Origin: Promethearchaeota archaeon Loki_b32
Lineage (GTDB): Archaea; Asgardarchaeota; Lokiarchaeia; Sigyniarchaeales; SOKP01
Assembly (NCBI GenBank): GCA_005223125.1
Contig: NJBH01000051.1
Location: forward strand, 1 to 20,856
Direction: 5' to 3'
DNA: 20,856 bases
The position numbers and the translations under genes are program-made. Numbering within the stretch: position 1 is the stretch's first letter; the number at the start of each line of letters is the position of its first letter. The notes below the pieces were generated by a model. The model was not told the origin of the DNA. It saw only the letters and a list, made by a program, of their open reading frames with translations, and did no database searches. Shown here one piece after another: positions 1 through 17,209 of the stretch.

Positions 1-340
1 CGTATTTTCTAGATATTACTCTTTCTTTATGGAGATCTAACTTTCCACCAACCATTAATAGAGGAATTTTTTTTTTTTCATTAGATAATTTGTCTTTGAA
101 TAATGTTAACCATTTTTCTACGTTTTTTATACTGGAATAATTAGTGATATCATACATAAAAATACCTCCTGATATGCCCTTTATAAAAATGGGGAAAATA
201 AATTGAAATTGAGGATCACTTCTAAGATTCCAAATTTGAAGGATAATTTTAGAAGAATTTATTGTTAAATTTTTAATCGCAATATCTATGCATACTGGTG
301 GTTTTACTTTCTTTTTTTGAATACCTGCTTGGGTTAGTTT
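1..340 (-). pseudogene. Rab/Ras-like small GTPase remnant (N-terminal G1 missing, G3 degenerate; runs off window start)
   Basis: Not in the ORF track. Manual minus-strand translation: ...PVCIDIAIKNLTINSSKIILQIWNLRSDPQFQFIFPIFIKGISGGIFMYDITNYSSIKNVEKWLTLFKDKLSNEKKKIPLLMVGGKLDLHKERVISRKY. This follows the Rab pattern (KLQIWD..GQERF, YDIT, IP..LVGNKxDL..R.VS). An in-frame TAA lies at 343-341 and no GxxxxGK[ST] was found upstream. Confidence 0.8.
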
Positions 341-939
341 TTAAGGCTTTAAGGCTTTATAACCCAGCCTTTTCAATTTTCTCCATCACAACACGAGGAA
401 AGACTAATACCCTCGAGCGGTCGGATTATCTCGAAAACACTGAAAAAATATTTGAGGAATATAACAAACAAACGCTTATACGTTTTAAACAAGCAAAAGG
501 AGATGTTAGGTCTATTAAAGCTATTAATAAATATTGCACTATGCCTAACGCTATGTGGAAAAGCCCCAGAATTGCGGCGGTTCAGTCCGACTTACTCTCA
601 GAGCTCTGGGATGGCAGGGATGCCCATACTGGCAAGCCATTAAGTACTGTTGTAAGGCATCACTATACCATTATTTATTGGGACGGAAATAAGGTAGGTT
701 ATATAAAATATGACTGTAGACTGGTAGCCCTTGTACCTTTGTCTCAGTCATCCCATCTTATGATGCTGACCTCATCAGCGAAGGCGATTAGAGAATATGA
801 GGCAAATTTTAAAAGAGTAATGGAAAATTTGATGAACGGGATATGGGATGTCCCAACTTGGTGGAAGAGGGAAAATCCTAAGGCTCTTAAATCTTTTGAG
901 GAAAATTTACTGAGGCTCGGATATGTAAAGCCTACGTAA
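298..939 (+). CDS. HNH-like nuclease domain protein, probably an N-terminally truncated fragment (possible toxin C-terminus)
   Basis: Motif GRDAHTGKPL..VRHH...KYDCRLVALVPLSQSSH resembles the HNH beta-beta-alpha-Me pattern (HH...NLVxLxxxxH). The GTG start at 298 overlaps the antisense GTPase remnant, so the true start is uncertain (first in-frame ATG at 541). Confidence 0.5.
   Translation: MVLLSFFEYLLGLVFKALRLYNPAFSIFSITTRGKTNTLERSDYLENTEKIFEEYNKQTLIRFKQAKGDVRSIKAINKYCTMPNAMWKSPRIAAVQSDLLSELWDGRDAHTGKPLSTVVRHHYTIIYWDGNKVGYIKYDCRLVALVPLSQSSHLMMLTSSAKAIREYEANFKRVMENLMNGIWDVPTWWKRENPKALKSFEENLLRLGYVKPT
342..357. repeat. 8-bp tandem duplication TAAGGCTT x2 at the GTPase truncation point
   Basis: ttaaggctttaaggcttta read directly; it coincides with the end of GTPase similarity. 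Confidence 0.5.
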
Positions 940-959
940 TAAAGATTACAAATTCCCCC

Positions 960-998
960 ACACTTAATATTTAAATAAGTGTTTTTTCTTTTCTTTTA
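960..998 (+). terminator. stem-loop ACACTTA-N9-TAAGTGT followed by T-rich tract
   Basis: 7-bp perfect inverted repeat (960-966/976-982) followed by TTTTTCTTTTCTTTT, just after the stop of 298..939. The loop region also contains TTTAAATA, a possible TATA box for 1039. Confidence 0.4.
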
Positions 999-1038
999 TA
1001 ATAAAAGACAAGATGTAAGTGTAATAAGAAAATAAAGT

Positions 1039-2178
1039 ATGTCAGACTTCAGCTATTATTTGGTGGAACCGTGCGAGCTTGTCACCATCGTGTATGGTTC
1101 AGATGGTATCACTGAACTTGGTGGGTATTCATTTAGAGGATACATAAAAGGTATGGATCATTTCTTTCGAATCTCTGATCTTTTTGCCTTTGAAATGAGT
1201 TATTTAGGTCAAGTTGAACTCCACGAGAAAAATATAGTTTTTGAAACCTTTTCTAATGTCTTACGAAGTAGTTTTTATTGGGAGATAGAAAAAGGATTAG
1301 CAAGGACTCTTGAGGACGTCGTTAATCGATATATTGAAGAATTAAAGCAATATAAATTTATGACTCAAAGACTACATCCATTTTTACCAAAATCAAGTAT
1401 TACTACTTCCGCTGATCTTAAAGAAGTTGAAATAACCATCGACCGCATTTTCAAATGGATACAGAAAATGCGCCAACACCATATTATTTTTTATGAGCGT
1501 GTCTTACAGGAATATACTGCTCGACAAGACCAGTATAACCAGCGTTTGCGGGAATATTTAGAAAATAATGATAATAAAGAGAAATCCGTGAGTAAATCTG
1601 TCGAGTTTTCCATCGATTCTGTCTTATCTGAACTTGGAATTGATTCTGAGAATCACAGTAATGACGGATTACCTAAGACGCATTACGACATTCACAGCCA
1701 ATCTTGGTATCTTAAAGATTTAATGAAGCTTGAGAATCCTGACATCGAGAGATATACCAAGAGTTATGAGGAGCTCCCTCGTTATCGTACTGGTGAGATA
1801 CATACACATCCAGAAGGTTTGAGAGCCTTTTTTGAGCTGTTCTTCGTCTTTAAGGATGAAATGAGCCTTATATTACCTGACAATCCCGATGAGAGCTTTT
1901 TCGAAAAGGTCTTAACGGTTCTCATCCGAGATTTTATTAACGATTTTAAACGGAAGGGCGACTTGGAGGATATAATTGTCGAATACATCGAGGAACTCGA
2001 GAAGTTTGAATTCCTTTCCCTTTCAAAAGAACAATTTTTCGACAAACTTTCCAAAATGATTTATGACCTTCGAACTCGACGTATTGCTTTCTATGAAGCT
2101 GTGCTTGAGGATTATTTGGCGAATAAGGAAAAATATGATAAAAACATGGAAATAAAAACATTGAAATATATACCATAA
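1039..2178 (+). CDS. acidic helical hypothetical protein with internal domain duplication (possible immunity protein)
   Basis: 379 aa ORF with two similar halves: G..xFF....F..EMS...FE...LED.V..YIEEL....F...I..MR...I.FYE.VL..Y......Y. Confidence 0.75.
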   Translation: MSDFSYYLVEPCELVTIVYGSDGITELGGYSFRGYIKGMDHFFRISDLFAFEMSYLGQVELHEKNIVFETFSNVLRSSFYWEIEKGLARTLEDVVNRYIEELKQYKFMTQRLHPFLPKSSITTSADLKEVEITIDRIFKWIQKMRQHHIIFYERVLQEYTARQDQYNQRLREYLENNDNKEKSVSKSVEFSIDSVLSELGIDSENHSNDGLPKTHYDIHSQSWYLKDLMKLENPDIERYTKSYEELPRYRTGEIHTHPEGLRAFFELFFVFKDEMSLILPDNPDESFFEKVLTVLIRDFINDFKRKGDLEDIIVEYIEELEKFEFLSLSKEQFFDKLSKMIYDLRTRRIAFYEAVLEDYLANKEKYDKNMEIKTLKYIP

Positions 2179-2376: not shown

Positions 2377-2467
2377 AATTCAAAGAGTTCAAAAATTATG
2401 ATCATAGTTCAACTATAGTTCAAACTACATCTGAACTTTATGTAACAAAACTATATATTGAACTTCA
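2377..2467 (+). promoter_or_regulatory. promoter A: A(G/C)TTCA-like box array + TATA (AACTATATAT 2449-2458)
   Basis: AGTTCA at 2386, 2406 and 2417; ACTACA 2424; ACTTTA 2435; 8 nt gap to TATA; ACTTCA 2462. Same spacing as promoters B-D. Confidence 0.65.
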
Positions 2468-2477
2468 TCTTCATTTT

Positions 2478-2509
2478 AATTAAACAAAACAACAATTAAA
2501 CAAAACAAC
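2478..2509 (+). repeat. perfect 16-bp tandem repeat AATTAAACAAAACAAC x2 in the 5' leader
   Basis: Copies at 2478-2493 and 2494-2509, followed by a partial AAAACAG. Confidence 0.85.
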
Positions 2510-2549
2510 AAAACAGAAAAAAGAATAATGAAAAAGGAGTGAAAAAAAC

Positions 2550-2819
2550 ATGGCTCAAGCAATAAGAAATAAGGATGTAAGAAAAAATTGTGTTGATGTC
2601 GAACATATTATTACAGAAGGTTTGATAAAACCCGAGAGGGAAGAGATTCGGGAAATAGTGGAGCCAAATCAATCTAGCGAGCTTAGCAAAAAGCTCTTAA
2701 AGTTTCATTCAAAATCTAAATATAATGCAAAATATCATCAAGAGTTAATTCCTTTTGAACGGGTTAAATACAAATTAACTTACAGGACTTACAGGAATTA
2801 TGCAATTAATTTAAATTAG
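2550..2819 (+). CDS. small hypothetical protein (89 aa), paralog of 12613..12822
   Basis: RBS GGAGTGA upstream. Shares PE.EE..E.VE, KK.LKF, AK.HQE.I and K......YR with 12613..12822. Confidence 0.8.
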   Translation: MAQAIRNKDVRKNCVDVEHIITEGLIKPEREEIREIVEPNQSSELSKKLLKFHSKSKYNAKYHQELIPFERVKYKLTYRTYRNYAINLN

Positions 2820-2862
2820 TAAAAAATAAAAAGAAAAAAAATGAAAAAGTGAGGTAAAAAAA

Positions 2863-2940
2863 ATGAGAAAAATGCGAGAAGCAATAATTATAATTAAAAA
2901 TGGTATTGTGAACTATAATCTAACTTATCTTAATCAATAA
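2863..2940 (+). CDS. micropeptide, 25 aa MRKMREAIIIIKNGIVNYNLTYLNQ
   Basis: RBS GAGGT at 2851-2855, ATG 2863, TAA 2938-2940, then a T-tract. Same position and similar composition as 12851..12940. Confidence 0.65.
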   Translation: MRKMREAIIIIKNGIVNYNLTYLNQ

Positions 2941-3022
2941 ATATTTTTTTTATTTTTATGAAAGACAAGCTACTGAGTAATTTACGATAATCAATCATTA
3001 TTATATCATCTCGAAAATAAAT

Positions 3023-3093
3023 CTTTTCCATTTCCGTATTAGAACGTAATGTGAGAAAATGGGGCGAGATTTTTACTCGCCCTAATTACATTA
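3023..3093 (+). other. conserved intergenic element copy 1 (CTTTTCCATTTCC + GGGCGAG-ATTTTTA-CTCGCCC hairpin)
   Basis: Stem 3062-3068/3076-3082; related copies at 7544-7595 and 12963-13013. Confidence 0.75.
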
Positions 3094-3121
3094 AAAATAA
3101 TAATTTAAATGGTGAAAATGT

Positions 3122-3301
3122 ATGGGTTTAGAAAAAATAAATTTTGTAGGTAGGTGCCATTGTCCAGAATGCAATGGTTTGTATATTATAATAGACAATG
3201 AAATTATTTCTTGTCCTGTATGTGAATTAAATTCACATGGAAATGTCTCAAAAATGTACGAAGAGGAAGCAGGAAAAGAAGTAGTTCAATATCAAGTTTA
3301 A
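3122..3301 (+). CDS. zinc-ribbon microprotein (59 aa; CPEC...CPVC)
   Basis: RBS GGTGA at 3111-3115. Translation MGLEKINFVGRCHCPECNGLYIIIDNEIISCPVCELNSHGNVSKMYEEEAGKEVVQYQV; below the ORF-track cut-off. Confidence 0.75.
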   Translation: MGLEKINFVGRCHCPECNGLYIIIDNEIISCPVCELNSHGNVSKMYEEEAGKEVVQYQV

Positions 3302-3348
3302 AGTTCAATGAAAGTTCATTTAGTTAATCTATATATAAAACAAGTTAT
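3283..3348 (+). promoter_or_regulatory. promoter B: AGTTCA box array + TATA (ATCTATATAT 3327-3336)
   Basis: AGTTCA 3283, AGTTTA 3295, AGTTCA 3302, AGTTCA 3313; 8 nt gap to TATA. Confidence 0.7.
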
Positions 3349-3392
3349 TTAAAATTAATAAAAAAAAGAATCTGTAAAATAGGTAATTAAAA

Positions 3393-4703
3393 ATGGAACA
3401 AACTCCAACGAAAAGGAATTTCAGGCATTATATGTATTTCTTATTTGGACAACAATTTTCAATGCTGGGATCAATGATAGTGGGTTTTGTAATTACATTC
3501 TGGCTCACTATAGAAACCGGTAGCACTGTGATCCTTTCAATTTCGGTGTTTTTGATGTTTCTACCGCAAATTATTATAACGCCATTCTCTGGTGTTATCG
3601 CTGACAGGTGGAATAAGAAGGCTATTATTGCCTTTACAGATTCGATGCAAGCAGGGGTAACCTTTTTACTATTTGTATTTTTTCTTTTTGACTTTCAAAA
3701 CATTTGGTTAATATTAGGTGTAAACACATTTAGGGCATCATTATATGCATTTCAATATCCTACAGTACAATCTCTCATTCCAACAATGGTTCCGAAGGAA
3801 AAATTAAGTAGGATAAATGGTATAAATTTCTTATTTTCAGGAGTAATTTTTAGTATAGGTCCATTGCTCGCAGCAACACTTTTAGCATTTTTTACAATTA
3901 ACCAAATTTTCTTTGTTGACATTATAACTTTTTTAATTGCTCTCGTCCCATTTCTGTTAATAAAAATACCTAAAGTACATCGAGTTACAGAAGAAGCTGC
4001 TAAGAAGTCAATGTTTAAGGATTTCAAAACAGGGTTATTAACAATCAAGATGATTCCAGGCTTGTTTGCTATGATTGCATTTGCGATGATATGGAATTTC
4101 ATTAGTAGACCCTGGGCAGTGTTGCTACCATACTTTATATTAATTACACATGAGGGAACGGCTTTCTCTTTAGCATTGTTAATGACTTCATCTCAAGCTG
4201 GAAATATTCTTGGATCACTTATTTGTTCAGTTAAGAAAAATTGGAAACACAAAATAAAACTGAACATAATTGGCTCATCAATATTTTTCATATGTCAAAT
4301 ACCTGCGATTCTTGCACCTAAAGGGAATTTCATTCTCATGATGATAGTTCTTTTTCCCGCATGGGTACTATTTCCAATTACAGTTTCCACATATTTAACT
4401 ATTTTGCAAACAGTTGTTTCTAAAGATAAAATTGGCAGAATTATGTCAATTGATCACATGATTTCAATGGCGATAGCTCCAATTGGAGCGCTTATTGCGG
4501 GACCATTAGCAGAAACCATTGGTATAATCAATTTGTTTTTTATTTTTGCGATTGTGGGTATGATATTTCCTTATATCATTTGGTTTTTCACAAAAATCAG
4601 ACAGCTTGAAATCATCGAAAGAGAAATTATCATGAAAACAGAGGAAGTTGTTGAATTAGAAGAAACTCCAGAAATTATTCAAGTTATTGAACCAATTGAA
4701 TAA
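3393..4703 (+). CDS. MFS transporter (DHA3/MefA-like exporter type)
   Basis: About 12 hydrophobic segments; GQQFSMLGS N-terminus; MFS motif A GVIADRWNKK; PTMVPKEKLSRING; GRIMS..H....AIAPIGALIAGPL. Confidence 0.92.
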   Translation: MEQTPTKRNFRHYMYFLFGQQFSMLGSMIVGFVITFWLTIETGSTVILSISVFLMFLPQIIITPFSGVIADRWNKKAIIAFTDSMQAGVTFLLFVFFLFDFQNIWLILGVNTFRASLYAFQYPTVQSLIPTMVPKEKLSRINGINFLFSGVIFSIGPLLAATLLAFFTINQIFFVDIITFLIALVPFLLIKIPKVHRVTEEAAKKSMFKDFKTGLLTIKMIPGLFAMIAFAMIWNFISRPWAVLLPYFILITHEGTAFSLALLMTSSQAGNILGSLICSVKKNWKHKIKLNIIGSSIFFICQIPAILAPKGNFILMMIVLFPAWVLFPITVSTYLTILQTVVSKDKIGRIMSIDHMISMAIAPIGALIAGPLAETIGIINLFFIFAIVGMIFPYIIWFFTKIRQLEIIEREIIMKTEEVVELEETPEIIQVIEPIE

Positions 4704-4801
4704 ATTTTTTTTTCTCTTTTATTTATAATCTCTTTTTAAAAAAATTTTCCAATTCGCCATAGAGCATTTATTTAAATAGATGATACTTCATTCCTTAAAT
4801 A

Positions 4802-5890
4802 ATGGAAGAATTTACTATTAATGAGTATCTTAGCTTAAGACTTGAAGACGAAACGACAAATATCTATGTAAACAACAAAAAAATCTTGCGATGTAAATAC
4901 ATTCTAATCGATATTCCTATTGAAACCTTAGACAATGATGAATTTGAATCTATTGATGAATATATTGATGAGTATAAAAAAGTTGAAGCAGAAACAAAAG
5001 AGAAAGCAAAAAAGCTTCCACCTGATGTGGAGTTCTGGGGTCATTGCTCCAACCTTCACTATTGGCACTTACAGCAATATGATACAAATATTATTCATCA
5101 CGAATTAGCGTTTCCCTTACTAAAAGCTCTTACCAAAGCAGGAGACCTAATAGCTAAAGCAAGGTTTAAAGATGAGATCGCGAAATGATTTGGAAGCGGA
5201 TATCCCTCAGTCATGAAATTCTTAGAAAAAGAAGGATACTTAGAGTACCTAAATGAAGGAGAGCTTATATTATGTGTAAAAGACGCACTCGAGAAGAGTT
5301 TAAGAAAATTGGATCATAAGGCTGTAGATTGGTTAATAATGTATTACGGAAATAAACTTAAAACACATTTCGGAAGGGAGGAATACCTAAATATTCTTTT
5401 AAACAAAAACGAGGCAGAAATCATCATCGAATTAGGAAAAATTATTGGTAAAGATATCATAATTGAAGAATATAGAATTGATAGACTACATATTTCAGGT
5501 CTTTCAGAAGAGTATAGAGATACTAAAAGAAACCCATTTACAGAGTACTCAATCGAAGTAGAAGATAAATTTGTCGTAAGGCTTAATTTGTCAGATTGTG
5601 GTCTAAATTCTTTTCCTAAAATTATAACTGAATTAATAAAATTAGAAACTCTAATTTTAAATGGAAATGAATTAAAAGAAATATCAAAATCAATTTTAGA
5701 CATGAAATATTTAAGATTTGTATCCATAGCTCGTTGTGGAATTCAAAACATCCCAAATTGGTTTAAAAACTTAAAACTTTTAAAAGGAATATATCTTTTA
5801 GAAGGAATAAATCTATCAGGCAATCCGTTAAATGAAAGAAGTAAAGAATTAATAAAAAATTTTAAAAATATTGAATACTGGGTAAATTAA
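4802..5890 (+). pseudogene. Lokiarchaeia-type leucine-rich repeat protein interrupted by an in-frame TGA at 5186-5188
   Basis: ORFs 4802..5188 and 5213..5890 are in the same frame: KDEIAK*FGSGYPSVMKFL. N-terminal EFTINEYLSLRLE...EFWGHCSNL...LAFPLLKAL domain; C-terminal LRRs (LNLSDCGLNSFP, LETLILNGNELKEIS, INLSGNPL). Confidence 0.85.
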
Positions 5891-6153
5891 TCAATCCATC
5901 CCTTTTCCCTATACTTATTAACCAAATAAGGATTGTCCAGTAAATCGACATAGTTAGGCCTAATATACTTGTCTAAATCGGAGCTATATATGATCAAAGT
6001 ACCTCCACCCCAGATAAGGTCCCATTCCTCATTCATTAGGTCAATAAAATCCTCTGTACTCATTTCAATTTCCTCCCCGAGAATAGTTGGATGCACCGTG
6101 CTAACATAATAGTTATTAAATACGAAGTTACCGAAATCCCAGAAATTGTCCAA
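5887..6153 (-). pseudogene. probable gene fragment (88 aa, TTG start, no RBS)
   Basis: Protein-like sequence in a visibly more GC-rich patch. The frame is open up to a stop at 6201-6199 with no ATG upstream of 6153. Its stop overlaps the LRR stop (TTAA). Confidence 0.35.
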
Positions 6154-6278
6154 GTTGCTAGGACTGTAGAGTAAGTTTTTTTTAATTTTTTTTATTCTTT
6201 AATTTTTTTTAAGTAATTTATAATTAATTTGAAGCCTTTTTCACTAAATCTCATTCTATAGGTAATAAATATTCTATA

Positions 6279-6381
6279 ACTTCAATTTCAGTTTCCAGTT
6301 CACTTCAAGTTCAATTATCAAATCTATTTATGTAATAAAATCTAATCTTTGATCAGAAAAGAACTTGGCATGGAAAGTTCG
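6279..6381 (+). promoter_or_regulatory. promoter C: A(G/C)TTCA box array + TATA (ATCTATTTAT 6322-6331)
   Basis: ACTTCA 6279, AGTTTC 6290, AGTTCA 6297, AGTTCA 6308; 8 nt gap to TATA; downstream GAACT 6361 and AGTTCG 6376. Confidence 0.7.
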
Positions 6382-6423
6382 AACAATAAATATTAAACGA
6401 AATCACTAAAATAGGTATATTAA

Positions 6424-7383
6424 ATGACAGAAAGACCAGAAACAGAAAAGGCTTTAATAGATAGTTTGAACTTAAAAGCTTCTGAGATAGCGGATTCGAA
6501 ATTTAAACTAATAGATAGAGTTATTCTAGATTTTGCACCAGAAATAGCATATATATACCAGATTCGGGAGGATAAATCAGAAGAACAACAGATAAAAACA
6601 GGACGTCTTCATGAAAATCGCATTTTAGGAATTTTTTTAAAATTTTATTTAGAAGGCAAAAAAAAAATTACCACAGGAGACGTTGAGGAGGAATATAGGC
6701 TATATTTTAGAGAGATTGCACGATCAACTACATCAACTTATTTAAACATGCTTAAAAATGAATCTATTTTATCCACAGAAAAAGATGGGAGAAAAGCTTA
6801 TTATTTTTTACATGAAGATCCCCCACTAGGGATCAAACCTTTTTGGTTTACACGAATTTTTTGTATAGTTCCTGTTTATTTTAATAGAGCGATGACTTTT
6901 TCTCATTTATACATTAATCCTGAAAAAGCCATACAGGATTACGTTAATCAATACGGAGGTAAAGATAAAAAAATTTTAGTAAAAAATTTCAAATTTATTA
7001 TAGGGCTAATATTATTAAATATTTTTAAAAATCGAAGTTCGAAGTGTATACTTTGTCAATTTAGTAAAAGGGAAATATATGAGAAATTGGAAGAAATAAT
7101 TAGTATTGCAATTAAAGATAGAACTGATGTTTTACCCGAGGATCTGGTGAATAATGTAATAAACAAGTATTCAGAAATACCAACGCTCAATGAAACTGAT
7201 AACGATATTATGGAAGAAATCACTACTCACATGTCAAGATATGCTGATATTTACAAAAGAGATATTGAATTTCAGGTTATGTTATCAGTTCGACGGCAAG
7301 ATTTACGGTTAAAACAAAAAAGGGCTTTAGAGGGAGATATGTTATCAGTTTTAATTGAGGAAAAAATCGAGAGAGGTGTATGA
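6424..7383 (+). CDS. winged-helix transcriptional regulator with uncharacterised C-terminal domain
   Basis: RILGIFLKFYLEGKKKITTGDVEEEY...IARSTTSTYLNMLKNESILSTEKDGRKAYYFL is a wHTH with wing; a CILC motif occurs later. Confidence 0.75.
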   Translation: MTERPETEKALIDSLNLKASEIADSKFKLIDRVILDFAPEIAYIYQIREDKSEEQQIKTGRLHENRILGIFLKFYLEGKKKITTGDVEEEYRLYFREIARSTTSTYLNMLKNESILSTEKDGRKAYYFLHEDPPLGIKPFWFTRIFCIVPVYFNRAMTFSHLYINPEKAIQDYVNQYGGKDKKILVKNFKFIIGLILLNIFKNRSSKCILCQFSKREIYEKLEEIISIAIKDRTDVLPEDLVNNVINKYSEIPTLNETDNDIMEEITTHMSRYADIYKRDIEFQVMLSVRRQDLRLKQKRALEGDMLSVLIEEKIERGV

Positions 7384-7526
7384 AAATTAATAAGATTAAA
7401 TTAAATTGTATGATATGTGGGAAGGAAATCAAATTAAATTTTAATTCTATTACGGCGATATGTAAGAAATGTCAGAAAACCCGTGAGAAAACCCTTATTT
7501 ATGAACCATTTTTCCTATCAGAATAA
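7380..7526 (+). CDS. zinc-ribbon microprotein (48 aa; CMICG...CKKC)
   Basis: RBS GAGGTG and ATGA overlap with the stop of 6424..7383. Translation MKINKIKLNCMICGKEIKLNFNSITAICKKCQKTREKTLIYEPFFLSE. Confidence 0.8.
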   Translation: MKINKIKLNCMICGKEIKLNFNSITAICKKCQKTREKTLIYEPFFLSE

Positions 7527-7543
7527 TAATTTAATTTATTTTA

Positions 7544-7595
7544 CTTTTTCATTTCCAAATTATAAGAGAGAGATTTTTACTCGCCTTTAAGTTTT
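7544..7595 (+). other. conserved intergenic element copy 2 (degenerate 5' arm)
   Basis: CTTTTTCATTTCCAAATTATAAGAGAGAGATTTTTACTCGCCTTTAAGTTTT; shares GAGATTTTTACTCGCC exactly with copy 1. Confidence 0.7.
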
Positions 7596-7686
7596 ACAAA
7601 AAAACTATTAGTTATTTTGATTTTTCATGATTTTGAATTTCTCAAATTAGAGCAAACTCTACTTAGAAGAAAATATAATTTATGTT

Positions 7687-7777
7687 AAGTTGTGAAATTT
7701 TTTACACTATAATTATGTTTAAATACTCTATTAGATTTTATATTCTTAGAAAGTTGTGAAAAAAAAATACACAACTT
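7687..7777 (+). promoter_or_regulatory. two operator-like dyads flanking the thioredoxin TATA box
   Basis: Perfect AAGTTGTG-N11-CACAACTT at 7751-7777; imperfect AAGTTGTG-N10-CACTATAA at 7687-7712; TTTAAATA at 7718-7725 between them. Confidence 0.7.
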
Positions 7778-7806
7778 ATTTAAGAATTTTAAAATGTGAA
7801 AAACGA

Positions 7807-8211
7807 ATGCAAGAAGTAGATGAGAAATTAGAAATGTTGAGAAGTAAAAAAGCTGAAGCTTTATTAAAACATCAAAAAATGCCAGAGAGTGTTATAAAGG
7901 TAAACTCTGTAGAAGAATTTAACAAAATCTTAAAAGATTACCCTGATAAAATAATTATTATAGATTTTTGGGCAGTTTGGTGTGGCCCTTGCATGTTCTT
8001 CGCTCCAATTTTCAAAAAACTTCATGAAGAATTTCAAAACGACTTTATATTTCTTAAGGTTAATGTTGATGAAAACCCTTCCGTAGCAATGAAATACCAG
8101 ATAACCGGAATCCCAACAACGTTATTCATTAAAAATGGAGAAATTGTAAATAAGATTGTTGGAGCCATGAATTATGATGGAATGAAAAAAGTATTAGTAA
8201 AGTTAAAGTAA
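7807..8211 (+). CDS. trxA: thioredoxin
   Basis: DFWAVWCGPC active site and ITGIPT cis-Pro loop. ATG 7807 (MQEVDEKLEMLRSKK, archaeal-type N-terminal helix) is preferred over GTG 7756, which lies inside the operator palindrome. Confidence 0.95.
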   Translation: MQEVDEKLEMLRSKKAEALLKHQKMPESVIKVNSVEEFNKILKDYPDKIIIIDFWAVWCGPCMFFAPIFKKLHEEFQNDFIFLKVNVDENPSVAMKYQITGIPTTLFIKNGEIVNKIVGAMNYDGMKKVLVKLK

Positions 8212-8274
8212 TAAACTCGTTAAACTAGTTCTTTTTTTATTTATATTCTTTTTATAATTTTAAGGTAATGATTA

Positions 8275-8739
8275 ATGGAAGTAATAGAAAAACAATTAAA
8301 AGAATTTGAATTAATAGATGGATTATTGGAGAAAAAAGAAATCTTTTCTAGTGAACGATTATTCAAATGTATTTTAGGTTTAAATAAAACAGAATCGAAG
8401 GTACTTGGATATATGTTAAAAAATAAAGATGTAAGAACATCTGAAATTGCAAATGCATTAAAGATGGATAGAAGCTCAATTCAAAGAGCTGTTCAAGGTT
8501 TATCTGAGTTAAAACTCATTGATCGTAAATCAATGTCGATGAAAGATTATACTGCTACAAAAGAACTAAAAGATGCCAAAAAACAAGGGTATCTCTATGT
8601 TTATAATGCAAAGAACATGGAATCCATAAAAATTCAATTAAAAAAACTGTTAGATAAATGGTACAATTCAATGTTAAAATACATTAAAAATCTTGAAAAT
8701 CTCTGCGAATGTTGTGGTTTCAAATTTGAACCATGTTAA
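8275..8739 (+). CDS. HTH transcriptional regulator (TrmB/COG3355-like) with Cys-rich C-terminus
   Basis: FKCILGLNKTESKVL...SEIANALKMDRSSIQRAVQGLSELKLIDR...GYLYVY; C-terminal CECCGFKFEPC. Confidence 0.85.
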   Translation: MEVIEKQLKEFELIDGLLEKKEIFSSERLFKCILGLNKTESKVLGYMLKNKDVRTSEIANALKMDRSSIQRAVQGLSELKLIDRKSMSMKDYTATKELKDAKKQGYLYVYNAKNMESIKIQLKKLLDKWYNSMLKYIKNLENLCECCGFKFEPC

Positions 8740-8775
8740 ACATTTTGATAGATATAAGAAAAAATTAGTCATAAG

Positions 8776-9447
8776 TTAGAACATATAAATTACGTTAAAA
8801 GGGAGATTTTCCAATATTTCTTTAAGATCTTCTTTAAATTCTTTCGAAACAGGTTCAAAACCATCTAAAGTATAATTACTGACAGAATAATGATCTGGCA
8901 TGACTTCTAATAAGAATTCTTTTAATTTTTCCACATTTTTAATGTTATCATTAATACCCTTCAAAAACATTGTATAGATCCCTAATTTACCATTAAAATT
9001 TTTGCTAAATTCTATAATTCCTTCTAATACATCCATTGAGTTTATGGATTCAGGACATTTATTAATTTTTGAAAACTGAAAGTTATTAACGCTATTGAGA
9101 TTGATGGCAACCAAGTCACATCCATAAAAAATATTTCGAACGTCTTCATCTTGAAAGATTCCACAATTTAAATAAATACCAATTTTTTGTTTTGGATATA
9201 CCGCCTTAATCATTTTTGTAATTAGTTTAAATTTTGAAGGGTTTATGGTGTTGGTTATTCCCTTAAACCAAATTAAACTTGGAATCCCTCGAACTTTAAT
9301 ACAATCTCTAATTTCATTAAAAATTTCTTCAGTAATGTTAATCAAGTCTGAATCTTCAGAACTAGAGCTGAAATCAACTGATAAAAGAGTTCCAAAATTA
9401 AAATTAAACTCAAACGCTTTTACGTATCTGTAATCCATTAAGATCAC
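8776..9447 (-). CDS. radical-SAM-like partial TIM barrel lacking CxxxCxxC (COG0731-like C-terminal part)
   Basis: IGIYLNCGIF, DLVAINLNSV...FSKINKC and GKLGIYTMFLKGINDN..NVEKLKEFL..VMPD resemble the radical SAM core. No three-Cys motif is present. Located 14 nt downstream of the TPR gene. Confidence 0.6.
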   Translation of the reverse strand: MILMDYRYVKAFEFNFNFGTLLSVDFSSSSEDSDLINITEEIFNEIRDCIKVRGIPSLIWFKGITNTINPSKFKLITKMIKAVYPKQKIGIYLNCGIFQDEDVRNIFYGCDLVAINLNSVNNFQFSKINKCPESINSMDVLEGIIEFSKNFNGKLGIYTMFLKGINDNIKNVEKLKEFLLEVMPDHYSVSNYTLDGFEPVSKEFKEDLKEILENLPFNVIYMF

Positions 9448-9461
9448 ATTCTGTATTTGGA

Positions 9462-12425
9462 TTATTCAATATCTTTCGATTCTCCTAGTAATGCCTTAAC
9501 TTCAGAAATCAATTTCTCTACTTTAGGTAGGTATTTAGATGTATGACTAGGATGCATCTTTTCAGTCAATTTTTTCCCTCGTTCATAATATTCAAGCGCT
9601 TTTTCAATCTTTTCAAGTTTTTTAAAACATTCTCCCATTTTTAAGCAAGTTTCAAAAGCAAACCATCCTGAAGGTTCGAGATTCAAAGCTTCTCTAAATT
9701 TTTCAAGAGCATTTTCGTACTCTTCAAAAATCATTAATATTTCACCGTATGTATCATAAGAATTTCCATATTTAGGATTAAGACTTATTAGATATTCAGC
9801 AGTTTCAATGGCTTCCTCTCTTCTTCTTAAATGCCCTAACATATATGCTTTATTGTTTATAATATTAGTATCTCGTGGAAATAATTTAAGTGCTTCATCA
9901 GTAGTTTTTAAACCTTCATCATATTGTTGTTGATGGACCTGAATATACGATTTTAGTAAGAGAAGATTTCTTTTTAAAGTGGGGTGGCTTTCTAACAATT
10001 CATGAATTAAATCCAAAGCTTCATCTTCTCTCTTGGAAGTTAATAGAAAGTAAGCTTTCCTAGCATATAGAGGATGTAGTGTTGGAACCAACTCAATTGC
10101 ACTATCAACAGAGTCAATAGATTCATCGTATTTTTTAAGCCCATTTAAAATGTGTGCTTGCAATAGAAGATACTTTATTTTATTATATTTAATAGGCTCA
10201 AAAGAGATTGTAAGCTTTATTAATTCAATAAATATATCAATATTTGGCTCTTTAAATGTAAATTTATAAATTAAATTATAACCAAGTACTAAAGCTTTAG
10301 TGAGAAATGAAATGGGATGATCAGGATAAAGTGTTAAAACGAGATTAGCAATTTCTAAAGATTTATCAAATTTACCACGTGCTAAATAGGAGTAAGTTAA
10401 AATGAAATACGCAATTGTATCAATTCTGGGATTCTTTTTAAAATTATTGATATCAATTCCTCCTGTAATTACTCTCTTCGCTTCTTTATATTTATTGATC
10501 AGACAATAGTATAAACTTTTCAAAAGCAGAATATCTTGATCAGTTGGATTCAATATGGTTAATTGATTTATTACCTCTAAAGGTTTATTATAATCCTTTA
10601 CTAGTGACATCCAATGAGAAATATATACTATGTATTTTGCTTTTAATAGTGCGGTATTATCAGGATATTGAGATAATAAATCCTCAATATCATCAAGTAC
10701 TTTATCTCCTTGATATACCCTAATTAAAATTTGAGCTTTTTGGCATGTTAAGAGAACATTTGGTGTTATCTCTAATGCCTCCTCTATAATTTCTAAAGAT
10801 TTCTCATAATTATCCATTGAAAAGTAAGTTATTGATTGGAATAAGTATCCTATGAAATCATTTGGATATTTTTGAATAATTTCATTAGTAATTTTAACTG
10901 ATTCAATTAAATCATTTTCTGCTGTCGCTATAATATCTTTTAAAATTAATTGATTAATGGTTTTTAACTTAGTATTACTATTCTGATATAGCTCCTTTGC
11001 TTTAGAAACTTTATTCCCATTTAAATTTTTTACAACTTTATTATAGATATCTAATTTATTCAAATTGTATGTCTTCTGAATTTCATTTGTATTCAAGAAA
11101 TTTAATTTGGATAGAAACATAATATCTAAAGCATTGAAGATATTGGGCTCCAAAGCATAATAATACTCATCCTCCTCTCCAGCTATTGGTAGGCTTGAAG
11201 GTTCAAAAGTTTGGAATTCTTCCTTAATATTCTGCCAAACAAAACCTTCTAATTTTGCTTCACTATCAACTAATTTTTTCTCAGTCTCAATTTTATATGC
11301 TAAATATCTAATGTACCCAGGTAAGAATGTTTTTAATGAAGGTTTCAGATGTTCATTGAATAGGTTACCACAAATATCATCTAAGATTTTATCTAATAGC
11401 AATTCTACATCTATCGTCGTAGTTTCATGAAATTTATTTAAATATGTTAATTTTATAATATGTTTTTCTACAATCGCCTTAAGAACTTTCTCAACTGTCT
11501 CATTCTTTTGAAAATAATAAGTTCCCCCTTGCTCATCCTTCATAATAAAGAATTTAATGTCAAAAAATTCATTGTCTACTATCTCTCTTATATAATAATC
11601 TAATGTAGTTCTATCAATCTTGTACTTCAACGAGAAGTCTTTGGTTGAAATAAACTCAGGATATTGAGCAGGATGATTAATCGAAAGGAACAATAAAATT
11701 TTATTAAAGTCCTCCTCATCTTTTAGCATCGCTTCCACTTTAGAATAAGACAACTTCAAGATATGATCAAGATATTGATATTTTAATTCATCATCCTCTA
11801 TTTTATATTTCTTAAAGAATCTACTAGTTTTTTCTGTAATTTCTTCAATTCTCTTGCTTTCCTGTTCCAAAATAGACTGACGATCCAAATCATAGGATTT
11901 CAATATTCTAAGATATTCTGTCTTTCCTAACGGTGTTATTATATATTCTTTATTATCTCTTGAAATAAATCCCCCATCTATTAATGAATTTAAATTATTT
12001 GATAAAGAGGATTGATTAATTAACAGCGGTTCTTGTTTAAAGTCTGACCATTTACATGAATAATTATTATAGAGCATCCATAAAATCCAATGATCATAAT
12101 TCCTAAATTTGAGAATTGTTTTTGGTGGAAATTTCAATCTCCTCTGCCCGGATTTTCTATCATAGACTAACTCACTATACCGATCTCGCCCTTGTGGAGT
12201 AATTCGATATTTCCCCTTTTCAGGCTTCTCAATATAATCTTTATTCAAAAGTTTTTTTAAATTGCCTGATAAAGTTGATTCACTTATTTCAGCAGTAAAA
12301 GCGGACCACTCACAAATATTATTGTTGCTGAGCATCCATAATATTACATATTCAAAATCAGTTTTCCCCATAATGGGGTTTAATATCTCTCCAGGAGGAT
12401 ATAAGACTCCCTCTGATCTACTCAT
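9462..12425 (-). CDS. tandem winged-helix + TPR-repeat protein (987 aa)
   Basis: Two N-terminal wHTH repeats (ILWML.NN..C.WS.F....I..S.LS.NL..L.....I......Y.ITP.G...Y) and a possible third HTH (FSLKYKIDRTTLDYYIREI). The C-terminal half is TPRs, e.g. NSYDTYGEILMIFEEYENALEKFREALNLEP. Confidence 0.88.
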   Translation of the reverse strand: MSRSEGVLYPPGEILNPIMGKTDFEYVILWMLSNNNICEWSAFTAEISESTLSGNLKKLLNKDYIEKPEKGKYRITPQGRDRYSELVYDRKSGQRRLKFPPKTILKFRNYDHWILWMLYNNYSCKWSDFKQEPLLINQSSLSNNLNSLIDGGFISRDNKEYIITPLGKTEYLRILKSYDLDRQSILEQESKRIEEITEKTSRFFKKYKIEDDELKYQYLDHILKLSYSKVEAMLKDEEDFNKILLFLSINHPAQYPEFISTKDFSLKYKIDRTTLDYYIREIVDNEFFDIKFFIMKDEQGGTYYFQKNETVEKVLKAIVEKHIIKLTYLNKFHETTTIDVELLLDKILDDICGNLFNEHLKPSLKTFLPGYIRYLAYKIETEKKLVDSEAKLEGFVWQNIKEEFQTFEPSSLPIAGEEDEYYYALEPNIFNALDIMFLSKLNFLNTNEIQKTYNLNKLDIYNKVVKNLNGNKVSKAKELYQNSNTKLKTINQLILKDIIATAENDLIESVKITNEIIQKYPNDFIGYLFQSITYFSMDNYEKSLEIIEEALEITPNVLLTCQKAQILIRVYQGDKVLDDIEDLLSQYPDNTALLKAKYIVYISHWMSLVKDYNKPLEVINQLTILNPTDQDILLLKSLYYCLINKYKEAKRVITGGIDINNFKKNPRIDTIAYFILTYSYLARGKFDKSLEIANLVLTLYPDHPISFLTKALVLGYNLIYKFTFKEPNIDIFIELIKLTISFEPIKYNKIKYLLLQAHILNGLKKYDESIDSVDSAIELVPTLHPLYARKAYFLLTSKREDEALDLIHELLESHPTLKRNLLLLKSYIQVHQQQYDEGLKTTDEALKLFPRDTNIINNKAYMLGHLRRREEAIETAEYLISLNPKYGNSYDTYGEILMIFEEYENALEKFREALNLEPSGWFAFETCLKMGECFKKLEKIEKALEYYERGKKLTEKMHPSHTSKYLPKVEKLISEVKALLGESKDIE

Positions 12426-12471
12426 AATGAATCACGGTTTCTTCTATAAGATCTTATTTTATATTTATATT

Positions 12472-12559
12472 AGTTCACTATCCTTTTAAGCTTTTCACTT
12501 CGGAGTAAAGTATGAACTTCACATGAAGTGCGAAGTGCGAATCTATATAATGGAGTTCG
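12472..12559 (+). promoter_or_regulatory. promoter D (divergent region): box array + TATA (ATCTATATAA 12541-12550)
   Basis: AGTTCA 12472, ACTTCG 12497, ACTTCA 12516, AGTGCG 12527; 8 nt gap to TATA; AGTTCG 12554. Confidence 0.65.
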
Positions 12560-12612
12560 ATCTATCTTTTCTTAAGAAAAAATAAAAAAAAATAGAAAAG
12601 TGATAAAAGAAT

Positions 12613-12822
12613 ATGGAACAAGTTTTTGAAAAAGAACCCTTTTATATTGTACTTCCTGAAATTGAGGAAAAAGCAGAAAAAGTTGAGGAGAAACCAAAAG
12701 AGATCAAAAAGAAACTTAAATTTAGGAAACACGCCAAGCAGCATCAAGAGAGAATCGATATTAATAAAATAAGGAATAAAATGAATGCAAGCCGATACAG
12801 AGCAACTCTCTACAATCGATAA
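12613..12822 (+). CDS. small hypothetical protein (69 aa), paralog of 2550..2819
   Basis: Acidic N-half, basic C-half; shared motifs PEIEEKAEKVE, KKKLKF, HAKQHQERI and RYR. Confidence 0.8.
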   Translation: MEQVFEKEPFYIVLPEIEEKAEKVEEKPKEIKKKLKFRKHAKQHQERIDINKIRNKMNASRYRATLYNR

Positions 12823-12850
12823 TTAAAATTTAAGTTGGAGGTTGTTAAAA

Positions 12851-12940
12851 ATGCGTGTTAAACGAATGAAGAAAAAGATGAGGTTAATAATAATTACGAA
12901 TGATAAGGGAAGATATCATTCGCGATATATAACTTATTAA
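12851..12940 (+). CDS. micropeptide, 29 aa MRVKRMKKKMRLIIITNDKGRYHSRYITY
   Basis: Strong RBS GGAGGT at 12837-12842, ATG 12851, TAA 12938-12940, then a T-tract. Counterpart of 2863..2940. Confidence 0.7.
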   Translation: MRVKRMKKKMRLIIITNDKGRYHSRYITY

Positions 12941-12962
12941 AATTTTTTTTTACGATTATTTT

Positions 12963-13013
12963 CTTTTCCATTCCTAAATTAAGGGGTGAGATTTTTTCTC
13001 ACCCTCTAATTTA
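12963..13013 (+). other. conserved intergenic element copy 3 (CTTTTCCATTCC + GGGTGAG-ATTTTTT-CTCACCC hairpin)
   Basis: Stem 12984-12990/12998-13004, extended by TAAATTA (12975-12981)/TAATTTA (13007-13013). C-G to T-A compensatory change relative to copy 1. Confidence 0.75.
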
Positions 13014-13160: not shown

Positions 13161-13529
13161 TTATTTTGCTGATTCATCTTCTTCCATAAGGTCTAATCTG
13201 TTTCCTTCAGTATCTTTAAAGATTGCATAATATCCCACTCTAGGGATGGGACTTTTAGGTTTGATGATCTTTCCTCCATTTTCTTCTATCTTTTTAATTA
13301 TGTCATCCACTGATTTCACAGTAATATAATTTGTAATTGCGTCTTCCTTATTCTCTCTTTTCTGTAATCCCCCATTAATTCCTGGTTCATCTTCGTCACC
13401 AGCACTTATAAGCCAATATTCTAATGGACCTTCCCATTTTTCAATTTTCCACTTGAACACATTCTCATAAAAACTCTTTGCTCGCAGTGGATCATCGGCA
13501 TTAATTTCAAAATGATTTATTTTAGGCAT
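13161..13529 (-). CDS. VOC family (glyoxalase/bleomycin resistance-like) protein
   Basis: HFEINADDPLRAKSFYENVFKW...GINGGL...YITVKSVD...GGKII.PK.PIP.VGYYAIFKDTEGN. Confidence 0.92.
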   Translation of the reverse strand: MPKINHFEINADDPLRAKSFYENVFKWKIEKWEGPLEYWLISAGDEDEPGINGGLQKRENKEDAITNYITVKSVDDIIKKIEENGGKIIKPKSPIPRVGYYAIFKDTEGNRLDLMEEDESAK

Positions 13530-13690: not shown

Positions 13691-14755
13691 ATGAATTACT
13701 ACACAAAGGAGGCTTTAATATCTGCAACTGGAAATACTACAAAGCTAAATCAATTGAAAAGGGATGATTCGACTGCTATCATTTCAGAATATGGTGGACG
13801 GGTTTTAGGAGTTTTCCCAACAGAGAAGTGTTATAGCTTATTATGGATAAATCCAAACATTAAAAATATAATATCAACTAGAAACAGGGCGATTGGAGGA
13901 GATAGGTATTGGTTAAGCCCAGAAAGAGACTTTTTCTATAAAAATCCCGAAAGTTTCTCAAATTGGATTTGCCAACCTTCACTTGATCCTGCTAATTATG
14001 AGATCCTTGATACTGATGAGATTTCCTGTACAATTTCAAGCAATTTATTTGTTCAGAATATGAGAACAAAACAAGGATACCAAGGAGAAATTACACGACA
14101 GTTTAAATTAATAAGGGAACCATATAATACAGGATTATCTTATTGTGGAGTAGAGTTTTTAGATGATTGTATTCTTTATAGACCTAATCTAAATGTAAAT
14201 GGATGGAGTTTGGCCACAATTATTAGTTGTGGTCGAGAAAATCCTGGAACAGTATTAATACCTACTAAAGTTAAACCTAAACCACTGTCCTACTTTAAAA
14301 TCATACCAAAAGATCGTCTAAAGGTTGAAGAAAACTATGTGGCATTTAAGATTGATGTAGATGATATATATAAGTTAGCAATTCGACCTGAGGATATAGA
14401 TTTTTCAAGACCATCCAAAATAGGTTATGTCCTAAAAATGTCGGATAGTGACGAATATGGATTTTTAGTCAAACTTTCTGATGATATTCCAAAAACTCAG
14501 AATGAATGCTTTGATATTGCTAGAGATCATCCCGATTCTGAAATAGGAGTTATTCAATCATATAATTCAGAATCACCAGAAAAGCCCTTTTTGAACTACG
14601 GAGAGATTGAGCTTCAACTAAACAAATTTGAAACAATAGATAATGCATCTCATGGGAAGGCGAAGCATCAACTTTTTGGATATATTGGGGCAAAAGACGA
14701 TATAATTGGTGCTATTGAAAAATATTTAGGAATCGAAAATCCCTTTTTATTTTAA
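13691..14755 (+). CDS. hypothetical protein, DUF6786-like / galactose-mutarotase-like beta-sandwich
   Basis: YGGRVLG..., LLWIN, GGDRYWLSPE, IQSYN and YGEIELQ motifs, recognised from memory only. Confidence 0.55.
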   Translation: MNYYTKEALISATGNTTKLNQLKRDDSTAIISEYGGRVLGVFPTEKCYSLLWINPNIKNIISTRNRAIGGDRYWLSPERDFFYKNPESFSNWICQPSLDPANYEILDTDEISCTISSNLFVQNMRTKQGYQGEITRQFKLIREPYNTGLSYCGVEFLDDCILYRPNLNVNGWSLATIISCGRENPGTVLIPTKVKPKPLSYFKIIPKDRLKVEENYVAFKIDVDDIYKLAIRPEDIDFSRPSKIGYVLKMSDSDEYGFLVKLSDDIPKTQNECFDIARDHPDSEIGVIQSYNSESPEKPFLNYGEIELQLNKFETIDNASHGKAKHQLFGYIGAKDDIIGAIEKYLGIENPFLF

Positions 14756-14759
14756 TTTT

Positions 14760-15131
14760 TCAATCTCCAGTTGGTCTTATAGTATCTTGTTCTATGACTA
14801 AAAGAGATGTGCGAGTAGGAGCTCTTGTTCTATGCATTACACCTTTTGGAACAGTAAAACCTTGTTTAGGTTTTAACTCAATCAATTTCTCTTCCAAATC
14901 AATTAAGAGTAATCCTTCGATAACGAAAAAGAATTCATCTTCTTTTTCATGTTTATGCCAATGAAATTCACCTTCAATAACAGCTAATCTGATCACAGAA
15001 TTATTAACATTACAAAGTGATATATTCTGCCATTTCTTAGTACATTTATTTATTAATTTTGGAATGTCAATAATCTCCAAAGGTTGATACTTTATTTCTA
15101 AATCAATTGAATATTTATCTTGGTCATTCAT
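14760..15131 (-). CDS. cupin domain protein
   Basis: GEFHWHKHEKEDEFFFVIEG and VPKGVMHRTRA are cupin motifs 1 and 2. Confidence 0.92.
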   Translation of the reverse strand: MNDQDKYSIDLEIKYQPLEIIDIPKLINKCTKKWQNISLCNVNNSVIRLAVIEGEFHWHKHEKEDEFFFVIEGLLLIDLEEKLIELKPKQGFTVPKGVMHRTRAPTRTSLLVIEQDTIRPTGD

Positions 15132-17203: not shown

Positions 17204-17209
17204 ATCCTT

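Follow-up and report, generated by a model that had tools for sequence, protein, structure and literature searches.

The closest described counterparts of the locus analyzed here are the RRNPP(A) regulators of Firmicutes and their phages, among them Rgg/SHP, RopB/SIP, NprR/NprX and AimR/AimP. Such systems are recognized by a receptor of 250-500 amino acids (aa) with tetratricopeptide repeats (TPRs), next to a small protein of 10-100 aa that bears a ribosome-binding site and is a propeptide with either a Sec signal or an SHP-like composition (PMC10075063). We analyzed a 20,856-nucleotide stretch of Promethearchaeota archaeon Loki_b32 (contig NJBH01000051.1), hereafter the window, which is an entire 20.9-kb contig of a 4.13-Mb genome (G000) with 30% GC. 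In this window, a large regulator with winged helix-turn-helix (wHTH) domains and TPRs faces a cassette that encodes a small protein (SP), a basic micropeptide (MP) and, in related copies, zinc-ribbon microproteins. A first analysis, the sequence-only reading, had proposed a peptide-signalling circuit probably convergent with RRNPP. As in the RRNPP(A) systems, an N-terminal DNA-binding region precedes a TPR array, the peptide gene or genes are adjacent, divergent and under the regulator's apparent operator, and paralogues of the regulator go with distinct peptides. On the other hand, RRNPP(A) receptors have 250-500 aa and one HTH, with 5 or 9 repeats (PMC12700828), whereas the archaeal regulators reach 630-1000 aa and combine three winged helices with as many as about 15 repeats. 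Their peptides are basic and hydrophilic without a secretion signal, and the cassettes comprise several genes, among them zinc ribbons and proteins of 70-90 aa, along with an RNA hairpin, behind archaeal TATA promoters. The locus thus has the TPR content and the adjacent 10-100-aa small protein with its ribosome-binding site, but neither the receptor length (987 aa here, 630-1045 for the paralogues) nor a propeptide with a Sec signal or SHP-like composition. No homology was found with the RRNPP receptor fold (HTH plus 5 or 9 TPRs), the N-terminus being of the winged-helix type. The system is not a member of RRNPP, though it may work like one. In the literature that we searched, no description of peptide quorum sensing in archaea was found, nor anything relevant on Asgard TPR or peptide signalling or on small-protein regulators of Lokiarchaeota, most subscription papers lying outside this search. 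The regulator-microprotein system described below is real and undescribed.

The regulator (987 aa; 9462..12425, minus strand) was delineated with an AlphaFold2 model (pLDDT 84.7) and with Pfam, in which TPR_1/2/8/14 score above cut-off. It comprises wHTH domains at residues 24-87 and 110-175, a third wHTH-type unit at 237-306, a helical linker and a TPR solenoid spanning approximately residues 460-980; the protein had been taken for a tandem-wHTH regulator, and the secondary structure of the model corrects this to three winged-helix-type units. Its top 50 Foldseek and top 60 profile matches are generic TPR solenoids (OGT, APC/C subunits, Tom70, CTPR), without any RRNPP structure or profile among them, and its N-terminal half retrieved only generic winged-helix clusters from the ESM Atlas, at 0.90 or less. 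Within its own family, the N-terminal 405 residues were found in 56 of 68 genomes, often more than once per genome; a sample of 232 other Asgard genomes gave no match, and a single genome from a neighbouring family has a copy of the regulator together with its SP. Close homologues come nearly all from Promethearchaeota/Promethearchaeia (Lokiarchaeia). The paralogues fall into classes of about 990, 840 and 635 aa that differ in their number of TPRs, and their recognition helices are near-invariant from class to class, the TPR half being more variable.

Two paralogous cassettes are present in the window. Cassette D, divergent from the regulator, encodes SP-D (69 aa; 12613..12822, plus strand), predicted to have a disordered N-terminus and a C-terminal helix without an autonomous globular fold, followed by MP-D (29 aa; 12851..12940, plus strand), a basic micropeptide of the RLIIITN..HSRYITY type. 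Cassette A encodes SP-A (89 aa; 2550..2819, plus strand), with an acidic N-terminus, a variable linker, a NAKY-H/L-EE motif and an aromatic tail, then MP-A (25 aa; 2863..2940, plus strand), a basic micropeptide with an IIII-K-N-G core. SP-A and SP-D are paralogues (29% identity, same hidden Markov model (HMM)), and MP-A and MP-D are homologous, each preceded by a Shine-Dalgarno motif; a mutual homology of SP and MP found no support (probability 0.7%). Two CxxC..CxxC zinc-ribbon microproteins complete the set: ZnB (59 aa; 3122..3301, plus strand), the final gene of unit A, and the basic ZnC (48 aa; 7380..7526, plus strand), which overlaps the stop codon of the regC gene and whose homologues usually follow MP-D. 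ZnC could not be upheld as a paralogue of RNA polymerase subunit P (Rpo12), since hhalign gave a probability of 12.9% over 11 columns against the RpoP of the same genome.

The coding status of these very short genes was assessed from their substitution patterns. The pN/pS ratio of MP-D is 0.33, against 1.15 and 0.86 in the shifted frames, with an excess of changes at third positions; it is 0.41 for SP-D, 0.20 and 0.46 for two zinc ribbons orthologous to ZnC (overall shifted-frame range 0.75-1.15), and 0.62 for ZnB against about 1.0. The signal is weaker for MP-A (0.59 against 0.65-0.73). Together with the Shine-Dalgarno-like motifs found ahead of nearly all the micro-ORFs, these values show, as far as sequence comparison can, that the micro-ORFs are translated genes under purifying selection, as the sequence-only reading had assumed.

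The SP profile, run over 1.8 billion proteins, retrieved members of 122 clusters at 50% identity, all of 51-108 aa and sharing the same layout (acidic start, variable linker, NAKY-type motif, tail); no usable match was obtained in Pfam or the ESM Atlas. The predicted SP fold consists of a disordered N-terminus and helices without a globular core (pTM 0.29 for SP-D), which would be typical of a protein that folds upon its partner. The last residue is F, Y or W in 82 of the 122 SP representatives and in 30 of 53 MP-like peptides, for a background of 11-16%. A HbYX proteasome-gating tail was set aside, as the tyrosine is not penultimate. With a median net charge of +4 for the MPs and +7 for the zinc ribbons, both groups are strongly basic. 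The window SPs and MPs have a longest apolar run of 3-5 residues and a GRAVY (grand average of hydropathy) of -0.06 to -1.31, and the 53 MP-like peptides a longest run of at most 6 residues and a median GRAVY of -0.65, so that by these two measures neither SP nor MP displays a signal h-region or a hydrophobic composition. The SHP-like basic N-terminus with a hydrophobic stretch, which the micropeptides had been thought to have, comes down to a 4-5-residue aliphatic strand in peptides of negative GRAVY. They differ likewise from the leaderless 8-10-aa hydrophobic peptides of RopB/LCP (PMC10518010), the MPs being basic, hydrophilic and 20-32 aa long in a survey of ORFs of at least 10 aa.

Gene order in the homologues shows, within the genomes compared, that every long paralogue goes with a cassette in divergent orientation. 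A divergent microprotein gene lies within 2.2 kb of 38 of the 45 regulators longer than 940 aa and of 28 of the 34 of 780-900 aa, usually 150-250 nucleotides (nt) from their start, and the first divergent gene is an SP-type small protein in 33/45 and 25/34 cases, respectively, these counts being drawn from kin genomes that are not independent samples. In the window, SP-D starts 188 nt from the regulator start. Cassette A faces an 836-aa paralogue in relatives; the host copy of this paralogue has been relocated to another contig (C65), where it has the box described below without a cassette. Among the short regulators, 7/37 have a divergent microprotein detectable by HMM, and many 630-aa paralogues face other Shine-Dalgarno-preceded micro-ORFs of 23-30 aa, sometimes three in tandem. 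Starting from the small protein leads to the same conclusion: all three distant SPs with upstream DNA available face a regulator, and SP was found only where the regulator was found too. The conserved divergent linkage proposed by the sequence-only reading was therefore recovered from both sides when homologues were collected, and the peptide sequences proved clade-specific, SP tails and MPs differing from one regulator clade to the next.

Three isolated observations concern these genes. The host genome has a third SP gene (C37:18983-19237, L439), with a 635-aa paralogue and a Rab-like GTPase in its vicinity; its reading frame breaks off within a stretch of A, and it is either a pseudogene or an assembly error. 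An orphan MP-like ORF of 25 aa (G000 C70:564-641, minus strand) has no regulator nearby, and similar peptides follow SP in loci L021 and L088. Finally, at L034:14686-14769 (G003) a deletion joins the first SP-D residues in frame to the MP-D core, and the fused 27-aa ORF is retained.

The four plus-strand units of the window share one promoter code, in which the operator is followed after 10 nt by a TATA box of the CTATA[T/A][A/T] type (TATA at 2450, 3328, 6323 and 12542). Promoter D (12497..12549) has a pseudo-palindromic operator, ACTTC-N4-GAAGT, with extra half-sites, and stands back-to-back with the regulator start. Promoter A (2424..2457) has a degenerate operator with two half-sites 11 nt apart and in relatives also serves the divergent 836-aa paralogue; promoter B (3302..3335) drives a major facilitator superfamily (MFS) gene, and promoter C (6297..6330) has the same operator and TATA arrangement. 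A position matrix for operator plus TATA, trained on other genomes only, was run over all positions of the 4.1-Mb genome and ranked D 1st, B 9th, A 10th and C 13th. Taken singly, promoters A, B and C score inside the range of the best shuffled hits, yet four of the top 13 positions lie within 10.6 kb. The sequence-only reading thus stands as to the shared code and as to the units themselves, two cassettes of SP and micropeptide, zinc ribbons, an MFS gene and a wHTH gene all being found where it had placed them, save that the 59-aa zinc ribbon precedes promoter B and so belongs to unit A.

What that reading had missed is the extent of the code, which it confined to the locus. We used a strict pattern, ASTTC-N6-ASTKC-N10-TATA, which promoters B, C and D match exactly and promoter A with two mismatches, and compared its counts with those of reversed controls. 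It occurs at 10 sites in the host genome (control 0), a count that is partly circular, since the pattern was devised after some of these sites were known; the matrix scan and the orthologue footprints are free of this circularity. The strict box is present in 10/10 genomes of the host genus (controls 0), 7/11 of genus g14 and 4/5 of genus g13, the reversed controls being close to zero. A sister family that lacks the regulator has the box in 1/14 genomes, and reversed controls gave 3 there. As judged from these distributions, the operator code is shown to co-occur with the regulator.

Upstream of an MFS gene unlinked to the locus, the box is kept in 18/27 orthologues, compared with 0.2% of upstream regions, and a second operon of MFS and GNAT genes keeps it in its three true orthologues. 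Sixty further sites precede genes of the families TIGR04076 (8), MFS (8), flavin reductase (6), aldo-keto reductase (4), metallo-lactamase (4), aldehyde:ferredoxin oxidoreductase (AOR) (3), EFR1 ferredoxin (3), ATC-hydrolase-like/DJ-1 (3) and AhpD/CMD (2), as well as a methyltransferase, one M32 carboxypeptidase and more micropeptides; GNAT also counts among the families of the dispersed regulon. The box upstream of a hydrolase on contig C43 is conserved in only 1/18 orthologues, so this target is either recent or spurious. From these footprints and annotations, the code is shown to mark dispersed efflux, aldehyde/electrophile-detoxifying and redox genes in two genera, and the regulon reads, from its family names, as one of chemical stress, detoxification and efflux. 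A tentative parallel can be drawn with bacterial intrinsic-resistance and stress regulons such as those of WhiB7 and of MarA/SoxS/Rob, where one activator family likewise controls dispersed efflux pumps, acetyltransferases, reductases and hydrolases. Their regulators are of unrelated architecture, and here it is the microprotein cassettes that form the conserved core target. As a further observation, a cupin paralogue on contig C21 carries a strict box.

The window encodes three candidates for reading this operator: the TPR regulator, regC (319 aa; 6424..7383, plus strand), which has one winged helix and is itself a regulon member, and a TrmB/Lrs14-like wHTH protein with a Cys-rich tail (8275..8739, plus strand). 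Genomes with a minimal module are informative here. In G183, which is 100% complete, the regulator, the SP, the MP and the strict box each occur once and lie together, and no match was found either to regC or to the TrmB-like gene; five g13 genomes were searched for regC without a match, and the box is present in those g13 genomes that were examined. Binding of the operator by the TPR protein is thus the most economical assumption, regC is dispensable for the occurrence of the operator, and regC or the TrmB-like protein as sole binder is disfavoured. These minimal genomes make it likely, as the sequence-only reading had it, that the TPR protein binds the operator. The fixed place of the operator just upstream of the TATA box suggests that it acts as an activator, in keeping with what is generally known of archaeal activators.

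How, then, do the microproteins fit in? We tentatively favour, with somewhat less than even confidence, a lineage-specific family of activators whose response is adjusted within the cell by the microproteins encoded beside them. The activator, with its three wHTH units and TPRs, would bind half-sites one helical turn apart, directly upstream of the B recognition element (BRE) and TATA box. The cassette products would remain in the cytoplasm, where SP, MP or both might use their conserved C-terminal segment, with its free aromatic end, to dock into the solenoid of the regulator paralogue that they belong to, these two steps being the least certain; docking would then serve as an intracellular feedback that tunes or resets the chemical-stress response, and the co-transcribed radical-SAM-fold protein would be a plausible co-sensor. 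The short apolar runs and negative GRAVY of the MP-like peptides and the acidic N-termini of SP speak for a cytoplasmic location. Docking is favoured because the pairing stays one-to-one through duplications, the tails are clade-specific, the aromatic ends are anchored at the right-hand end, and SP looks like a partner-folding protein; peptide sensing itself is inferred. Several observations weigh against this scheme. In a mirror-distance comparison, the SP-tail distance tracks the DNA-binding half of the regulator as well as the TPR half (rho 0.34 and 0.32), so no TPR-specific co-evolution with the SP tail was seen by this method. The conserved Asn, Lys and Asp of the last repeats fall at common TPR-consensus positions. 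Several 987-type copies face regC instead of SP, and SP or MP can be lost singly. Moreover, regC co-occurs with the expanded regulon in genera g1 and g14, where the detoxification sites could be read by regC, which may recognize there a direct-repeat variant of the box. Lastly, the cassette is the sole strict target in g13, and allowing one mismatch adds sites at about the control level only; pure feedback would be futile in that genus unless weaker targets exist, which favours an effector role for the microproteins. One could indeed assume that the microproteins are the output of the system, the TPR protein and its radical-SAM-fold partner sensing a small molecule or a protein, and SP, MP and zinc ribbons, once switched on, acting on the ribosome, RNA polymerase, chromatin or proteases during chemical stress. 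This possibility, somewhat unlikely in our eyes, gains from the g13 genomes, from the strong basic charge of MPs and zinc ribbons and their tandem arrays of several types, and from the remaining targets, which form a set for small-molecule detoxification; archaeal one-domain zinc-finger microproteins are moreover reported to affect stress adaptation, biofilm and swarming (PMC6562870). Conserved machinery would however predict conserved effectors, whereas SP tails and MPs change from clade to clade of the regulator; neither RNA polymerase subunit P nor any Pfam family gave a match, and SP was found only alongside the regulator.

The RRNPP-like cell-to-cell circuit that had been proposed at the outset, where SP or MP would leave the cell without a classical signal (for instance through the co-regulated Mef-type MFS protein), be trimmed to a C-terminal peptide, re-imported and bound by the TPRs in a density-dependent manner, now appears unlikely to us. 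The divergent layout of receptor and peptide, with the peptide gene under the operator of the receptor, is that of Rgg/SHP groups I-II (PMC13361665), and leaderless signals do exist in Firmicutes (PMC10518010). Paralogue expansion with clade-specific peptides, right-anchored aromatic C-termini, MFS exporters within the regulon, three family-5 peptide-binding proteins in the host genome, an M3 oligopeptidase beside the short paralogues and the boxed M32 carboxypeptidase all go in the same direction. Yet SP and MP lack the basic and long-hydrophobic signal of RRNPP propeptides (PMC10075063), and high hydrophobicity is typical of SHPs as well as of the leaderless peptides of 8-10 aa (PMC13361665, PMC10518010). 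Zinc-ribbon microproteins in the cassette suit the cytoplasm, no MFS gene follows the cassette in G183, G079 and G166, the targets are private detoxification functions and not secreted public goods, and family-5 importers are also common in control genomes without such signalling. With hydrophilic SP and MP devoid of an h-region, a receptor twice the RRNPP size and no RRNPP protein in the top 50 Foldseek matches, the export model of the sequence-only reading found no support. We are equally doubtful of an independently evolved Asgard peptide communication, in which each wHTH-TPR paralogue would read a clade-specific, leaderless, aromatic-ended peptide that exits and re-enters cells and so controls detoxification and efflux. 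A RiPP-like cluster (ribosomally synthesized and post-translationally modified peptides), with the radical-SAM protein modifying the Tyr/Phe/His-rich SP and MP, MFS exporting them, and GNAT, hydrolase and efflux proteins giving self-protection, as at Rgg/SHP radical-SAM RiPP (RaS-RiPP) loci, is very improbable. The streptococcal, streptide-type RaS-RiPP loci (PMC13361665) do have such a gene content, with small peptides and an exporter beside the regulator and the radical-SAM gene, and 9 of 38 homologues of the radical-SAM-fold protein retain CX3CX2C, sometimes doubled, next to the 846-aa class of regulators. This gene is however co-oriented with the regulator on its transcript, opposite to the unit of the peptides, and is missing beside the 836-type and the minimal g13 modules; its product is a bare barrel of 220-238 aa with weak matches, to non-RiPP families only, and SP and MP have no common leader/core pattern. 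In the window clade, finally, the Fe-S loop is gone and the protein is catalytically disabled while the peptides are conserved.

If the microproteins bind the TPR solenoid, as in the intracellular tuning that we favour, the system would be an archaeal, convergent counterpart of the peptide-gated HTH-TPR switches, with recognition of a free C-terminus as in many eukaryotic TPR proteins. Were they also to travel between cells, peptide signals would be at work in the archaeal lineage most closely related to eukaryotes. The plainest reading still yields a chemical-stress regulon of the abundant Lokiarchaeia of sediments. Transcriptional regulation in Asgard archaea is barely described so far, and the system provides a complete unit for testing, in which a family of regulators comes with its operator and with a regulon that spans the genome, along with an RNA element and three families of microproteins that are all undescribed.

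This RNA element consists of a conserved pyrimidine motif followed by a hairpin and has three copies in the genome, all in the window (hairpins at 3062, 7566 and 12984). Element A (3023..3083, plus strand) combines the motif CTTTTCCAT(T/C)C with the hairpin GGGCGAG-loop-CTCGCCC, element D (12963..13012, plus strand) joins the motif to a 16-bp hairpin at the 3' end of cassette D, and element C (7544..7590, plus strand) is a degenerate hairpin, with a folding energy of -4.6 kcal/mol against about -20 for A and D. The 3' stem-loop that had been noticed in three units is thereby confirmed, copy C being degenerate. Across 22 copies, one stem position is C-G, T-A or G-C, the loop is of variable length, and the sense strand has 24 G-U against 9 A-C pairs, which argues for an RNA hairpin and led us to reject a DNA operator. 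No Rfam covariance model matched in the window at E up to 1. For the pyrimidine motif, neither a role as start codon of an antisense gene nor one as antisense guide found support, as the ATG is lost in some copies and the complements are scattered. Most likely, the hairpin stabilizes or terminates the short transcripts. In loci L034, L031 and L017, the A-type element has a second CGAGT upstream of the hairpin that might pair with the 3' arm in its place, and the pyrimidine motif is followed by a short additional stem, which may point to a switch.

The zinc ribbons recall the archaeal one-domain C(P)XCG zinc fingers of Haloferax volcanii and Brz of Halobacterium, which are CxxC..CxxC proteins of 32-60 aa with probable regulatory or stress roles (PMC6562870, PMC2253796). 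Compared by description only, the ribbons differ from the haloarchaeal proteins in forming an undescribed basic family inside a regulated cassette.

The remaining members of the cluster are an MFS exporter (436 aa; 3393..4703, plus strand) of the Mef/H+-antiporter (DHA3-like) type (TIGR00900, E 4e-62, below cut-off), a WCGPC thioredoxin (7807..8211, plus strand), conserved in the cluster like the TrmB-like gene, the radical-SAM-fold protein (220 aa; 8776..9438, minus strand), directly downstream of the regulator, and a glyoxalase/VOC protein (13161..13529, minus strand), conserved as a convergent neighbour of cassette D. In the window radical-SAM-fold protein and its clade, an 18-residue loop with CX3CX2C is deleted from an otherwise conserved gene, which makes the protein a pseudo-enzyme here; the intact state in other clades had escaped the earlier analysis. 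Orthologues allow the ancestral order to be drawn: the 836-aa paralogue divergent from a box with SP, MP, hairpin and ZnB, then a box with MFS and a box with regC, followed by thioredoxin, TrmB-like, radical-SAM-like and the 987-aa paralogue, divergent from a box with SP, MP, two zinc ribbons and hairpin, and lastly glyoxalase.

Other features of the region deserve mention. A regC paralogue, 67% identical (G000 C49:17214-18155), adjoins an acyl-CoA-ligase-like gene and has no upstream box. Where relatives have the 836-aa regulator, the window has ORFs of 213 aa (probably truncated by the contig end) and 379 aa (298-2178, plus strand); a homologous pair of 529 and 364 aa adjoins the thioredoxin gene in G005 (L032:1247-4027), and this is possibly a mobile pair that rearranged the cluster. 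Neither the pair nor its homologues matched Pfam, NCBIfam or PADLOC where tested. Between MFS and regC, ORFs of 128 and 225 aa (4802-5890, plus strand), the second with leucine-rich repeats, resemble one split leucine-rich-repeat gene inserted there, of which nothing but a 24-aa remnant was seen, in one other cluster copy (L031:5839). Elsewhere (L046, L047, L050, L098, L125-L131 and G000 C37:15000-31000), 635- and 830-aa paralogues are accompanied by an M3 oligoendopeptidase, by several small GTPases of the Rab-like kind and by SP paralogues, of which as many as three stand in tandem. Finally, a DUF6786 protein, a cupin and a pair of genes of 644 and 375 aa (13691-15131 and 15269-18337) recur beside the cluster in several genomes.

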